A DNA stretch of 64,000 bases from Puia sp. (GTDB lineage: Bacteria; Bacteroidota; Bacteroidia; Chitinophagales; Chitinophagaceae), in contig DATNBP010000189.1 of NCBI GenBank assembly GCA_035572015.1, forward strand, positions 12,979 through 76,978, written 5' to 3'. A model generated the notes under the pieces. That model saw nothing but the letters and a program-made list of their open reading frames with translations. It had not been told where the DNA came from and did no database searches. Below, in pieces: positions 6,537 to 36,289 of this stretch (its first letter is position 1; the number at the start of each line of letters is the position of its first letter). The position numbers were made by a program, and so were the translations under genes.

Positions 6537-6603
6537 ACCGCGACTTTTGCCCAATTGACCGATAAATTTTACAAGAAGATACTTGATTCACGATATTTGA
6601 ACT

Positions 6604-6657
6604 TGGTGTTTTTCATAGGTTAGCAACGGCCGGCTCTTTCCAGGGCAGGCCTTTTTT
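6604..6657 (+). ncRNA. Candidate small RNA A (GUUUUUCAUAGG seed plus intrinsic terminator)
   Basis: GATATTTG -7-like box 6592-6599, seed GTTTTTCATAGG 6608-6619, hairpin 6628-6651, T6 run. Similar unit at 30941-31000. Confidence 0.5.
6628..6657 (+). terminator. Intrinsic terminator
   Basis: GGCCGGCTC-TTTCCA-GGGCAGGCC followed by TTTTTT. Confidence 0.7.
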
Positions 6658-29086: not shown

Positions 29087-30937
29087 ATGACTTCGGAACA
29101 ATTCAGCCGGATCGCAGCTACGATTCCCGTCGATCCGGGCATCTATAAGTATTTCGACGAGCAGGATGAACTGGTTTACGTGGGGAAGGCCAAGAACCTG
29201 CGCAAACGCGTCAGTTCCTACTTCACAAAGACGTTTACTACCTTCAAGACGCATGAGCTGGTGCAGCGCATCCGGCGCATCGAGTTCACGATCGTCAACT
29301 CCGAACAGGACGCTTTTCTCCTCGAGAACTCGCTCATCAAGCAATACCAGCCGAAGTTCAATATCAACCTCAAGGACGATAAGAGCTATCCCTATATCGT
29401 CATCAGGAACGAACCGTTCCCGCGCGTCTTTCTCACCCGGCGAAAGACCGGCGACGGGTCCGAATACCTCGGGCCTTATACGTCGGTGGGCAGGGTCCGG
29501 GAATTGCTCGACCTGGTCAGGGCCAACGTCCAGTTGCGAACCTGCCAGCTGAACCTCGCTGAATCGCAGATCCAAAAAGGCAAGTACAAGATCTGTCTCG
29601 AATACCACCTGGGAAACTGCAAGGGGCCCTGTGAAGGCCGGCAAACGGCGGACGATTACCAACAGGGACTGCAACAACTGCGCAACATTCTCAGGGGCAA
29701 CCTCAAACCGGTGATCCAGCAATTCAAAAAAGAAATGCGCGACCGCGCCGAAAAAATGGATTTCGAACAGGCCGAAATGATCCGGAAAAAGATCGAACAC
29801 CTCGAAAATTACGAGTCGCGGTCCGTCATCGTCAGTCGCCGCCTCAGCAACGCGGATGTATTTTCGATCGCGCGTGACGGTGATCTTGCCTATATCAACT
29901 ATTTGATGGTGGAGACGGGGACCATCGTTCAGACGCACACCACCCAGGTCGAGACACACCTGGAAGAAACGGACGAGGAGGTGCTGTCTTTTGCCGTGGC
30001 AAGGCTCCGCGAGACCTTCAACAGCGTCGCCCGCGAGCTGATCCTGCCGTTCCCGATCGAATTCCCCGAAGAGGGTGTGGAACAAACCATACCCAGGGGC
30101 GGCGACAAACGAAAGCTGCTCGAGCTCTCGCAAAAAAATGTCGCCTATTTCCGCGAGGAACTGCGAAAGAAGAAGACCCTTCAGCTGGAGGGAAAGACGG
30201 CGGACGAACGCCGGAAGGTGCTGGAGCAGCTGATGGAAGACCTCCAGTTGACGGATCTTCCCGTACATATCGAATGTTTCGACAACTCCAATTTCCAGGG
30301 AAGTTATCCCGTCTCCGCCATGGTCTGCTTCCGCGATGGTATAGAGAGCAAGAAAGACTACCGGCATTTCAACGTGAAAACCGTGCAGGGCATCAACGAT
30401 TTTGCGACGATGAAAGAAGTGGTGCACCGGCGGTACAGGCGGTTGCTCGACGAAGGGCAGTCACTGCCTCAACTGGTCATTATCGACGGCGGGAAGGGCC
30501 AGCTCGGCGCCGCGCTGGAAAGCATCGAAGAGCTCGGCATCACCGGCATGATGACGATCGTGGGCCTGGCCAAGAACGAGGAAGAGATCTTTTTCCCCGG
30601 CGACACCGAGTCGGTCAAGCTGCCCTACAACAGCGACAGCCTGCACCTGGTGCGGCGGATCCGGGACGAGGTGCACCGGTTTGGCATCAGCTTCCATCGT
30701 CAGAAACGAAGCAAGGGCACTTTTGTAAATCAACTGGAGCAAATTGAAGGGATCGGTCGTCAGACGGCCGATCTGTTGCTGAAAAAGTACCGTTCCGTCG
30801 GCCGTGTCCGCCAGGTAACGGAAGCCGAACTCTCAGCAGTCGTAGGAGCGGCAAAGGCCAGAAAGATTCGTGCTCATTTCGGGGAAATCGACAGCCCGGA
30901 AGGGCAAAAAGAGAACCCGGACGAGGGACCCCTATAA
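29087..30937 (+). CDS. uvrC: Excinuclease ABC subunit C
   Basis: PGIY..YVGKAKNLRKRVSSYF (GIY-YIG), IECFDNS, IIDGGKGQL, RDEVHRF, HhH. Confidence 0.97.
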   Translation: MTSEQFSRIAATIPVDPGIYKYFDEQDELVYVGKAKNLRKRVSSYFTKTFTTFKTHELVQRIRRIEFTIVNSEQDAFLLENSLIKQYQPKFNINLKDDKSYPYIVIRNEPFPRVFLTRRKTGDGSEYLGPYTSVGRVRELLDLVRANVQLRTCQLNLAESQIQKGKYKICLEYHLGNCKGPCEGRQTADDYQQGLQQLRNILRGNLKPVIQQFKKEMRDRAEKMDFEQAEMIRKKIEHLENYESRSVIVSRRLSNADVFSIARDGDLAYINYLMVETGTIVQTHTTQVETHLEETDEEVLSFAVARLRETFNSVARELILPFPIEFPEEGVEQTIPRGGDKRKLLELSQKNVAYFREELRKKKTLQLEGKTADERRKVLEQLMEDLQLTDLPVHIECFDNSNFQGSYPVSAMVCFRDGIESKKDYRHFNVKTVQGINDFATMKEVVHRRYRRLLDEGQSLPQLVIIDGGKGQLGAALESIEELGITGMMTIVGLAKNEEEIFFPGDTESVKLPYNSDSLHLVRRIRDEVHRFGISFHRQKRSKGTFVNQLEQIEGIGRQTADLLLKKYRSVGRVRQVTEAELSAVVGAAKARKIRAHFGEIDSPEGQKENPDEGPL

Positions 30938-30940
30938 TAC

Positions 30941-30975
30941 AAAAGGGGCCCGGATAGATATCCAGCCCCGTTTTT
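30941..30975. terminator. Probably bidirectional intrinsic terminator (uvrC on +, candidate sRNA on -)
   Basis: AAAA-GGGGCCCGGA-TAGATA-TCCAGCCCC-GTTTTT. Confidence 0.75.
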
Positions 30976-31000
30976 AAAATCCAATATCCTATGAAAAACC
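30941..31000 (-). ncRNA. Candidate small RNA C (5' GGUUUUUCAUAGG seed plus intrinsic terminator)
   Basis: TTG-N19-TACTTTTA promoter (31034..31005). Transcript GGTTTTTCATAGGATATTGGATTTTAAAAAC-GGGGCTGGA-TATCTA-TCCGGGCCCC-TTTT. Lies downstream of the gldN terminator. Confidence 0.58.
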
Positions 31001-31104
31001 AGTGTAAAAGTAGTAAAAGAAATCAAACCGGCAATACCCGCTTTTGGGTATTTTTAAAATTTATTTTTCATATTAACTAATTAATTTATAGCATGTTATA
31101 CGCC

Positions 31105-31136
31105 AAAAAAAAAGGGGCGCCGCTTTGCGGCGCCCC
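31105..31136 (-). terminator. Intrinsic terminator of gldKLMN
   Basis: Perfect 10-bp stem GGGGCGCCGC/GCGGCGCCCC and a T9 run on the minus strand. Confidence 0.9.
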
Positions 31137-31160
31137 TTTGCGGAGTATCTTGTGACGAGC

Positions 31161-32195
31161 TTAATAAGACCAGAGGTCCTGCTCGTAATTGAAGATCTTT
31201 TCCTTGATGTTCTCCCCTTCCAGCAACCGGAGGATCGGGTCCTTGATATAACCCTGGATCGGCAGGTCGGCCGGGTTGTCGATCGTCGACTTGATGATCC
31301 GGCTGGCGAACATCCGGCTTTCGAACAATTCTTCCCAGCTCATCCGGGCGCCGAAATTCTTGCCGTTATAGGCTTCGAACTTCGCCAGCATCGGCCGCAG
31401 GTCCGGGTAGTATACCCAGAATACCGGGGTAACGTCCCGCAGCGAGCCGTCGGGGTTCTTGATGTCCTTTTCCGGAGCGATGCCCAGGATACGGACATAC
31501 AGCCGCGAGGTCTGCTTGTCGAAGACCCACTCTTCCTTGATCTCGTATCGCTCGATGATATCGGGCGAGAATTCTTCCTGGATCAGGGTGTCTTTCATGA
31601 TGCCCTTGGAACCGTCCGGATCCTTGGCATAGTCGGGCACCTGGATCACGTGGGGCTTGGCCACCAGGTTCTCGGAGATCTGCTTGAAGGTCATCGGCGT
31701 GGTGAACCGGTCGTCGACGGTCGCGTCGAAGGCGGTGATCTGCCCGCTCTTGATGGCCTGCAGCAGGATATTAATGAACATCTGGCTCCCGTTGTCTTCC
31801 GTCGCCCGGTAGACAAACGGCAGGTTCATTTTTTCGTGTACGTCGATCTCCTGCCAGACGCGTTGACGGTATACGGCATCGTCCTCACGGATATGCATGT
31901 AAGGCAGCGGCGTCCGGTCCTTTACCAGCTGGCGCTCGATGATAGCGTCGTTGCGGAGGGACCGCCGGATCGTATCCAGCTTGATATCAGCGTCCGGGAT
32001 CACCACGGTCGGTTTGGTCGTGTCCTTGGGGGCCACAACGGCGCCGGCAGCGGCCTGGTCCTTCTGGGTCGACTTCTTCTGTGTCGGCGTCCTCCTCCTG
32101 GGTCTACGGTGGTGCGTCGCCTGCGCATCCGCTGTTCCCGCTGCCAGGCCAACCACCAGGGCCAGGAGGCATACTCTGATAAAATGCTTTTTCAT
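31161..32195 (-). CDS. gldN: Gliding motility/T9SS protein GldN (PorN)
   Basis: PLPYMHIREDD, RVWQEID..EKMN, IKEEWVFDK, RILGIAP, FWVYYP, FNYEQDLWSY. Confidence 0.95.
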   Translation of the reverse strand: MKKHFIRVCLLALVVGLAAGTADAQATHHRRPRRRTPTQKKSTQKDQAAAGAVVAPKDTTKPTVVIPDADIKLDTIRRSLRNDAIIERQLVKDRTPLPYMHIREDDAVYRQRVWQEIDVHEKMNLPFVYRATEDNGSQMFINILLQAIKSGQITAFDATVDDRFTTPMTFKQISENLVAKPHVIQVPDYAKDPDGSKGIMKDTLIQEEFSPDIIERYEIKEEWVFDKQTSRLYVRILGIAPEKDIKNPDGSLRDVTPVFWVYYPDLRPMLAKFEAYNGKNFGARMSWEELFESRMFASRIIKSTIDNPADLPIQGYIKDPILRLLEGENIKEKIFNYEQDLWSY

Positions 32196-32260
32196 CGCTG
32201 ATGTATCTTATATAGTTTTCAAAAGGATCTGTCCGCCGATGCGGACAGATCAAAAAATGC

Positions 32261-34856: not shown

Positions 34857-36146
34857 TTATCGCCGGTTATTGTTCAGGGTCGGCGCCAGATCGATCACGC
34901 ACCGGAACCCGATATAGGACTTCGCCGTATCCTGGTACTCATAGGTCCTCGCGCTGGTCTGCAGGTACAAGCCTACGTCTTTCCAGCTGCCGCCGCGAAT
35001 TACTTTACGCTTCATACGGGGAGGATCGGAGTCCTTTGCGTTCCAGCGGATGTCGGGGTTCATGTCATGAACGAAGTTGGATGCTCCTTCATAGTAAAAG
35101 GAAGAAGTCCACTCGGCGACGTTACCGGCCATGCAATAGAGGCCAAAGTCATTGGGCCAGTAAGCATCGGCGCGTACAGTATAGAAGCCGCCGTCTTCGG
35201 GATAGTTCCCACGGCCGGGTTTGAAGTTTGCCAGGAGACAGCCACGCTTGTTCCTGAGATAGTAGTTACCCCAGGGGTACATAGACTGGGACCGGCCGCC
35301 GCGGGCCGCATATTCCCATTCTGCCTCGGTCGGCAGGCGGAAACTCGACTCGGTAGCCAGGTGTTTCCCTCCCAGGTAGGCGTTCAGGTACTGGGTCCGC
35401 CATTCGCAAAAAGCGGTAGCCTGGTTCCAGTTGACGCCCACGACGGGATAATTGCCGAATGCCGGGTGCGAATAGTACCGCTTGGTCATCGGCTCGTTAT
35501 AGGAGTAGGAGAAATCGCGGATCCATACCAGGGTATCCGGATATACCTTCAGGTCTTTCTTGATGATGAACTGGGAGCGGGGCTTGCCCTCGTTGATCTT
35601 CTGGGCGGCCGCATTCAGGTCGAAAGTCTCGGAATGATAGACGATCTTGTTCGGGTCGATCTCCTTCTTCCCGAAGATCCGGTTATCCGGCTCGACGATC
35701 ATCTGGTTGATCTTTTCGATGGTGGCCTTATCCCCGTACTTGATGGTGGCGGCCTTTTTCCAGTCGATCGCAAACCGGCCGTCCACGTCCTTGCCATACT
35801 GCATCAGGGTAGCGGCGATAGAGTCCCGGACCCAGTTGGTGAACTGGCGGTACTCGTTGTTGGTGATCTCGGTTGCGTCCATCCAGAAACCACTGATCGA
35901 AATTTGCTGATTGCGCGCCGTGTAAGCATAGTTCATGTCCTCATCGCTGGGTCCCATGTGGAAGGTTCCCGGCGGAATATAGACCATGCCGATCGGTTTC
36001 TTGAGATTATAGGCACTTGCAGGAGCCACTCCGTGCAGTTGCCCGTCGTCCAGCAATCCCTTGCCGGACTTTCCACCTAGTTTACAGCTTGCCAGCAGAA
36101 AGATGGCACAAAAAGCTGTCAAAACGGATAGGTTTTTCATTTTCAT
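34857..36146 (-). CDS. gldK: Gliding motility/T9SS lipoprotein GldK (PorK), FGE/SUMF1 fold
   Basis: Lipobox LLASC, GMVYIPPGTFHMG, YPDTLVW, YPVVGVNW, RLPTEAEWEYAARGG, IGFRCV. Start ATG 36146 or 36140. Confidence 0.94.
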   Translation of the reverse strand: MKMKNLSVLTAFCAIFLLASCKLGGKSGKGLLDDGQLHGVAPASAYNLKKPIGMVYIPPGTFHMGPSDEDMNYAYTARNQQISISGFWMDATEITNNEYRQFTNWVRDSIAATLMQYGKDVDGRFAIDWKKAATIKYGDKATIEKINQMIVEPDNRIFGKKEIDPNKIVYHSETFDLNAAAQKINEGKPRSQFIIKKDLKVYPDTLVWIRDFSYSYNEPMTKRYYSHPAFGNYPVVGVNWNQATAFCEWRTQYLNAYLGGKHLATESSFRLPTEAEWEYAARGGRSQSMYPWGNYYLRNKRGCLLANFKPGRGNYPEDGGFYTVRADAYWPNDFGLYCMAGNVAEWTSSFYYEGASNFVHDMNPDIRWNAKDSDPPRMKRKVIRGGSWKDVGLYLQTSARTYEYQDTAKSYIGFRCVIDLAPTLNNNRR

Positions 36147-36289
36147 AATATTAAAGGGTATTGGGCAAAAAAAACATTTTGACAACATCTCCTACAAGTT
36201 TAAAATTAATTTTTCGAATGTCAAAGCTTTCATCCGGACAAAATTCTTCCCTGGGACGGATGGATTGACGCTATTCATTGAAACGCAAC

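Follow-up and report, generated by a model that had tools for sequence, protein, structure and literature searches.

A predicted FopS-like sibling small RNA family of Chitinophagaceae, with one copy behind gldKLMN and gldK as a candidate target

Sibling small RNAs and the regulation of type IX secretion

Little has been mapped of how Bacteroidota regulate their genes post-transcriptionally. The FopS RNAs of B. thetaiotaomicron ('family of paralogous sRNAs'; RF04319) comprise 14 paralogs of 65-70 nt that are transcribed from canonical sigma-ABfr promoters (Ruttiger et al. 2025, PMC11697453). The 5' seed of FopS pairs beside the start codon of susC mRNA and blocks its translation in vitro, and FopS targets the start region of the first gene in envelope operons (PMC11697453). 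FopS is antagonised by the RRM protein RbpB, for which FopS RNAs show a CLIP peak within their 5' part; the survey of FopS homologs was limited to Bacteroides species (PMC11697453). GibS (RF04182), also from B. thetaiotaomicron, pairs with translation initiation regions and carries an R1-type 5' sequence, GUGUUUUUCAUAG, but is a single-copy RNA of ~140 nt with a second seed (R2) and a non-canonical promoter.

Outside the phylum, OmrA/OmrB, MicC/MicF, and LhrC1-5 of Listeria are likewise short trans-acting RNAs, often encoded in several copies, that mask the starts of envelope-protein mRNAs, although they are unrelated in sequence to the RNA described here. To our knowledge, RNAs of these types rely on Hfq or other chaperones that are absent from Bacteroidota, and we know of none among them that targets a type IX secretion system (T9SS) gene. 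T9SS regulation in Porphyromonas gingivalis is transcriptional and protein-based, with PorX/PorY/SigP controlling the porK/gldK operon. A full-text search of the literature turned up no account of gldK or the T9SS being controlled by an sRNA.

Here, we analyse a 64,000-nt stretch of DNA ('the window') from a Puia sp. assembly (4.4 Mb, 56 per cent G+C, 256 contigs, ~80 per cent complete), in which a short transcription unit lies between uvrC and the gliding operon gldKLMN.

Anatomy and distribution of the gldN-linked unit

The features of the locus are listed in Table 1, and on re-reading every sequence feature located in a preliminary description of this DNA lay where that description had placed it. 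NCBIfam supports the identities of GldK, GldL, GldM, GldN, and UvrC. On the minus strand, a TTG element, a 19-nt spacer, the box TACTTTTA, and four bases lead to a predicted +1 at 31000, from which the RNA would begin GGTTTTTCAT (in a longer reading from the same base, GGTTTTTCATAGGATATTGGATTTTAAAAAC); UUUU after the hairpin closes the unit at 30941. A sigma-70 promoter scan of the region returned no promoter, as expected for a promoter of the Bacteroidota type. Because the same hairpin is followed by TTTTT on the plus strand, 8 nt past the stop codon of uvrC (30937), it is a bidirectional terminator that also serves the convergent uvrC gene. The separate terminator previously noted for the gld operon is a 13-bp stem at 31139-31111, with an AT-rich spacer between it and the TTG box of the sRNA, and equivalent gldN terminators are found in other genera ~90-100 nt upstream of the sRNA. 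The locus was matched in 24 public sequencing runs, all of them soil or permafrost DNA metagenomes. Within the operon itself, the sequence between gldM and gldN (window 32196-32260, minus strand; CTGTCCGC...GCGGACAG) forms a hairpin with compensatory changes among genus members, which may be an internal attenuator or a processing/stability element of the gldKLMN transcript.

Table 1. Window coordinates of the sRNA unit, its neighbours, and its candidate pairing sites in gldK
Feature	Position	Strand	Description or basis
Predicted sRNA, gldN-linked family member	30941..31000	(-)	~60 nt; 92.8 bits against covariance model R1
-33 element TTG of sRNA promoter	31032..31034	(-)	Read from sequence
-7 box TACTTTTA, Bacteroidota TAnnTTTG type	31005..31012	(-)	Read from sequence
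5' end of sRNA, invariant 24 nt, seed region GGUUUUUCAUAGGAUAUUGGAUUU	30977..31000	(-)	Exact 24-mer in at least 120 contigs
Terminator hairpin of sRNA	30945..30969	(-)	10-bp stem; covariation and MFE fold
uvrC	29087-30937	(+)	Converges on sRNA hairpin
gldN	31161-32195	(-)	NCBIfam
Intrinsic terminator of gldN/gldKLMN	31111..31139	(-)	13-bp stem with 10 G-C pairs, and T run
Second start codon of gldK with the next 7 nt, fully complementary to sRNA nt 1-10	36131..36140	(-)	Seed alone -11.6 kcal/mol
gldK leader, conserved second pairing block	36147..36164	(-)	RNAduplex, cofold

The unit is a member of a multicopy family of sibling sRNAs, not a one-off. In a DNA search, the 60-nt unit (30941-31001) recurred several times in all 24 genomes of the genus (24/24), at 80-97 per cent identity and in many unrelated places. 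Searches with nhmmer and covariance model R1 recovered nine copies from the source genome, all intergenic, a count to be read as at least nine copies of the R1 subtype, with other subtypes that share the 5' end present besides. Copies are 58-62 nt long; when the paralogs are aligned, their similarity starts at the predicted +1, ends with the T run of the terminator, and is absent beyond either edge. Among gldN-linked orthologs from 19 genus genomes, RNA positions 1-35 are identical and the adjacent gldN DNA is 68-80 per cent identical. The most conserved part of the unit is the 31 nt 5' of the hairpin. The terminator stem has 98 per cent of its cells paired and compensatory changes at three pairs. 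Two further hairpins, predicted by MFE in the 5' part, showed zero compensatory changes and were broken wherever they varied; we therefore treated the 5' end as single-stranded. No conserved ORF was found on the sense strand of the sRNA copies.

The exact 24-mer that opens the unit, GGTTTTTCATAGGATATTGGATTT, occurs in at least 120 contigs, and those named below phylum level belong mostly to Chitinophagaceae or to its genera, including Ferruginibacter, Flavisolibacter, Puia, Flavitalea, Segetibacter, Sediminibacterium, Longitalea, and Agriterribacter. We compared the upstream sequences of 120 copies from other contigs, which differ in all 120. The motif TAnnTT[TC]n begins at -12 in 64 of the 120 copies (at most four at any other offset), and TTG begins at -35/-34 in 50 (at most nine at other offsets upstream of -10); the TTG inside the -7 box accounts for a further peak at -7 (27/120). 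Because the boxes are phased to the conserved GG despite their differing surroundings, there is strong, if indirect, support for a transcription start there, which coincides with the +1 proposed in the preliminary description and with the base at which conservation among the nine paralogs starts. The earlier picture of a stand-alone ~60-nt unit with its own promoter and terminator and a 5' seed directed against start codons thus appears correct in its anatomy, and on these sequence comparisons we are confident that the unit is a real sRNA gene.

Several paralogs depart from the common pattern. Those at C236:1123-1186, C138:2943-3006, C190:37340-37403, and C6:42740-42798 (contigs of the source genome) have altered seeds (GGCUUUUAAU, GACUCUUAAU, GGAUUUUCAA, and GGUUUUUCAC, respectively) and have lost the perfect anti-AUG, which points to a diversification of targets among family members. 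In other genomes, the units often stand in tandem or close together, two to three of them ~130-230 nt apart (for example, G174:C11:145259-145601, G213:C4:87010-87301, G235:C3:62536-62801, and G239:C290:46156-46359; loci L044, L059, and L002). In genome G013 (locus L002), a second copy lies in opposite orientation ~470 nt from the gldN-linked copy, measured from +1 to +1.

In a one-per-genus sample of Chitinophagaceae, model R1 matched 42 of 61 genomes. It matched five of the nine Chitinophagaceae in a phylum-wide sample and was not found in any of the 141 other Bacteroidota of that sample, while an order-wide sample yielded only three marginal matches outside Chitinophagaceae. The preliminary description had suggested a check for conservation of the unit at this locus in relatives: 30 of the 42 sRNA-bearing genomes carry a copy directly behind gldN, on the same strand and 4.9-5.3 kb downstream of the gldK start. 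Of the single-copy genomes, eight have contigs that permit a decision, and in six of these eight the one copy is the gldN-linked one. Multiple copies with a shared seed throughout the bacterial family indicate that the RNA is probably a trans-acting regulator of many targets.

Relationship to FopS and GibS

A scan of the region against Rfam by E-value found no family at threshold, and matches to RmaA, BjrC68, SprD, MicC, LhrC, and frnS were weak, sub-threshold, and dismissed as noise. In a cmscan comparison with a small search space, the window copy scored 14.3 bits against the FopS model, which is below the gathering threshold of 56. The alignment itself pairs GUG-UUUUUCAUgG--UAUUAGAUUU of the model with CUGgUUUUUCAUAGgaUAUUGGAUUU of the window copy, with posteriors mostly 9 or an asterisk, and the first 24 nt of the copy closely match the FopS consensus save for a 2-nt insertion. 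Across the cmscan alignments, the 5' sequence common to the unit and to FopS/GibS is G-UUUUUCAU-G-UAUU-GAUUU.

Like FopS, the unit has a conserved 5'-terminal seed (R1/R1') that starts at +1, and it exists as multiple paralogs, each with a canonical promoter and terminator. The siblings of both families are 60-70 nt long (the unit described here being slightly shorter than FopS), mostly intergenic, and equipped with a single terminator hairpin, a seed at the extreme 5' end, and a canonical Bacteroidota promoter; for both, masking of start regions is proposed, and RRM proteins are encoded in the genome (nine small RRM_1 genes in our source assembly). With its 5' seed, copies, promoters, and terminator shared, the unit therefore resembles FopS in every architectural feature tested. 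It differs in having a shorter and dissimilar 3' half and the 2-nt insertion in the seed region, in coming from soil Chitinophagales, and in the stable linkage of one copy to gldKLMN. The predicted targets of the unit also differ, as SusC-like starts are not among them: in silico, 30 SusC-like start regions had a median pairing energy of -12.65 kcal/mol (best, -17.9) compared to a random-window median of -13.7, which is no enrichment. Of the traits of GibS (a length of ~140 nt, two seeds, and a score of at least 115 bits), the unit shares only the R1-like 5' end. We consider it quite probable, judging from the shared 5' sequence and architecture, that the unit is homologous to FopS/GibS.

Three other loci of the source genome bear on the diversity of these RNAs. 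The best FopS score in the genome (30 bits) belongs to an 89-nt variant at C130:11316-11404 (-) (locus L021/L035), which also gives the genome's best match to GibS (28.7 bits; cut-off 115). It has the same first 16 nt, again forming a conserved seed from +1, and a longer, FopS-like middle (UUUAAUGGUUAAAAAA), and it may represent an intermediate form that links the Bacteroides families with the 60-nt type of Chitinophagaceae. Another possible sibling, with 23.8 bits, is located at C246:8042-8104. Finally, a second sRNA-like unit is found in the window itself at 6592-6655 (+), where a -7 box, GATATTTG (6592-6599), is followed by GGTGTTTTTCATAGGTTAGCAACGG..., a hairpin, and a T run; it has the same 5' seed, starts with GUGUUUUUCAUAG exactly as the FopS/GibS consensus does, and scores 18.8 bits against Rfam FopS.

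Predicted targets and alternative readings

The gldK gene has two in-frame ATGs six bases apart (ATGAAAATGAAAAACC), the first at 36146, and the perfect 10-nt complement of the sRNA 5' end reported in the preliminary description, ATGAAAAACC at 36140-36131, begins with the second. This match is rare: ATGAAAAACC occurs at 21 sites on both strands of the 4.4-Mb assembly, of which five simply lie opposite sRNA genes, on their antisense strand, and no more than four to five are plausible gene starts. Besides gldK, these starts belong to a 343-aa accessory protein (contig C18), a sigma-54 response regulator (C76), and a secreted protein (C110). By comparison, the 8-nt complement to gldN described earlier, ATGAAAAA at 32195-32188, is present but unremarkable because ATGAAAAA opens ~116 plausible genes in the genome. 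Its pairing (8 nt; -12 to -15 kcal/mol) is at background level and the gldN leader is variable, and we have therefore discarded gldN as a target.

A second pairing block is predicted in the gldK leader. The first block joins sRNA nt 1-10 to AUGAAAAACC. The second would join either CCAAUAcCCU (36164-36155), which includes a fixed A-C mismatch, to sRNA nt 11-20 (-19.9 kcal/mol by RNAduplex for the extended duplex) or, with a shorter 5' UTR, UUUAAUAUU (36155-36147) to sRNA nt 13-21 (-15.3 kcal/mol; cofold ddG -12.2); both in-frame AUGs would be covered under either of these predicted duplexes. The promoter and leader of gldK (window 36141-36175, minus strand) read TTTTTTTG and then CCCAATACCCTTTAATATTATGAAA, and part of the conserved leader block may precede the transcription start. 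Promoter, leader, and the first five codons do not vary among 30 genomes of the genus, in contrast to the freely varying signal-peptide codons immediately downstream. The leader is also largely conserved across sRNA-bearing genera, whereas genera without the sRNA have different leaders (AATCGCAAAAACAAC...).

By raw duplex energy, gldK ranks 199th genome-wide. Since G+C-rich sites inside genes dominate such a raw ranking, we then considered only ORF start windows and sites at start codons. Queried with the invariant 24 nt, gldK comes 15th among 3,522 ORF start windows, and among sites in which CAU pairs with AUG it is about second to fourth of the plausible true starts. At start codons, the most favourable energies are those of the genes for two OmpA-family proteins, two T9SS cargo proteins (Por_Secre_tail), an M23 peptidase, a glycoside hydrolase, and a sigma-54 response regulator. 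The predicted target set is envelope-biased, as expected of a seed complementary to AUGAAAAA. The single best predicted target in the genome is the C18 gene named above (C18:4213-5241 (-), locus L216), whose start region, AAUCCAAUAUCAUGAAAAACC, matches 22 of the first 24 nt of the sRNA (-26.5 kcal/mol); its 343-aa product has an N-terminal hydrophobic segment and zero Pfam matches. The gene is accessory, and because it is present in just two of 60 other genera it is unusable as a conserved comparator.

The gldK start forms 10/10 pairs with the seed (Watson-Crick or G-U) in 24 of the 35 clearly sRNA-bearing genera and in none of the 16 genera without the sRNA, a comparison between groups that are phylogenetically non-independent. 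GldK identity is 39-66 per cent in most sRNA-less genera compared to 64-83 per cent in strong sRNA-bearing genera, and since the former are mostly those with the most divergent GldK, the difference may reflect as few as one to three evolutionary events. Substitutions in the seed site are exclusively from A to G, which still pairs with the U run of the sRNA. Additionally, C is kept at position 3 of codon 3 and position 1 of codon 4, opposite the 5' GG of the sRNA. These C's persist although residue 4 varies (L, Q, R, or P), so the constraint looks to be at the nucleotide rather than the protein level. The seed is, however, the complement of a generic AUGAAAAA start, and Bacteroidota favour A-rich early codons in any case; conservation of the gldK start could therefore have another cause. 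As for co-variation of the seed with the gldK start, which the preliminary description had proposed as a check, we saw no compensatory seed change. In the genera whose gldK start differs, the sRNAs score 90-96 bits and are essentially consensus, and five genera (G174, G213, G223, G204, and G243) combine a gldN-linked sRNA and an unchanged seed with a mismatched gldK start. On sequence grounds, gldK belongs with the strongest and best-conserved of the predicted targets; that it is a physiological target is possible, although we stop somewhat short of expecting it.

We find it likely that the unit is a FopS-like sibling sRNA that is independently transcribed and acts in trans on start regions, with gldK as a candidate target. 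Under this proposal, the sRNA would be transcribed from its own Bacteroidota-type promoter (TTG, N19, TAnnTTTn, four bases, +1), and the transcript would end at the hairpin that also terminates uvrC. On the model of FopS, the invariant and unstructured 5' end of the sRNA would pair with mRNAs over the AUG and the first, A-rich codons, mostly in messages for exported or envelope proteins. Initiation of translation would thereby be blocked, possibly with modulation by one of the small RRM proteins. For this masking step, which leans on the FopS precedent, our preference is a modest one. The gldN-linked copy may tune gldKLMN, the core T9SS/gliding operon of which gldK is the first gene, but gldKLMN is unlikely to be its sole target. 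A stronger version, which makes the gldN-linked copy the family's ancestral core member and has it mask both gldK AUGs through the two-block duplex and regulate the T9SS/gliding operon post-transcriptionally, is tentative, and we lean against it.

The preliminary description had regarded the RNA as a locally encoded regulator of the gld genes. A dedicated local regulator would have the linked copy control GldK (and GldN), with the other copies irrelevant or otherwise employed. The linkage in 30 sampled genomes, the linked copy being the sole one in most resolvable single-copy genomes, the conserved seed match, and the leader that is invariant in the genus all fit such a regulator. The copy is not unique, however: at least nine paralogs exist, and unlinked paralogs carry an identical seed and would therefore act on the same targets. 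Additionally, five genera have the linked copy but lack the gldK match, the gldN pairing is at background level, and synteny across a gap of just ~130 nt is easily retained without selection. The proposed link to gldK held up better than anticipated, but a regulator dedicated to this operon is unlikely.

We also think it improbable that the RNA is mainly a sponge or decoy whose 5' end titrates an RbpB-like RRM protein instead of base pairing. The nine RRM_1 genes and an invariance that spans 24-35 nt, exceeding a typical seed, would suit protein binding, as would the position of the RbpB CLIP peak in FopS (PMC11697453). Yet the 5' end holds an exact anti-AUG and a U run, the predicted start-site targets are mostly envelope proteins, and the conserved gldK match fits pairing.

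A REP/MITE-like extragenic repeat, or a mere bidirectional terminator with an AT-rich spacer and no functional RNA, would account for a multicopy, intergenic element whose hairpin does terminate uvrC in the window and whose whole-unit fold z-score (-1.35) is unremarkable. Neither would explain why a non-palindromic 5' part of 35 nt is invariant across genera, why the promoter boxes keep a set distance from its first base despite unrelated upstream sequences, or why one copy holds its position behind gldN in ~30 genera. No terminal inverted repeats or conserved flanks were found in the paralog alignment, and conservation is not confined to the hairpin and its T/A runs but is highest in the 31 nt 5' of it, so that we rejected the terminator-only class and regard this explanation as very improbable. 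That the unit serves as antisense RNA to a gene for a small toxin or peptide, as in type I toxin-antitoxin systems, is scarcely credible: a 29-aa ORF that begins with ATGAAAAACC exactly opposite the sRNA 5' end (30991-31077 (+), plus stop codon) might be taken for such a gene, but equivalent ORFs at other copies are unrelated and 5-20 aa long (antisense ORFs at sRNA copies being 5-29 aa overall and not conserved), and conservation ends at ATGAAAAACC without extending into the ORF. The coding, toxin-antitoxin, and REP/MITE readings were accordingly rejected on the ORFs, the paralog alignment, and the intergenic placement of the copies.

For the FopS-like sibling sRNA that we favour, the locus suggests that soil Chitinophagaceae employ the same 5' seed design as FopS, that the current Rfam model misses a Chitinophagaceae branch of these RNAs, and that one member has been held beside gldKLMN across ~30 genera, its match to the gldK start being conserved too. 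If the gldN-linked copy were indeed an ancestral regulator of the operon, it would represent the first small-RNA control of the T9SS, and the FopS/GibS seed would be an old, phylum-level device that was retargeted from glycan importers to a secretion motor. Should gldK prove to be a real target, the sRNA would be the first RNA-level regulator of type IX secretion and gliding, two systems that matter for the degradation of polymers and, in relatives, for virulence.
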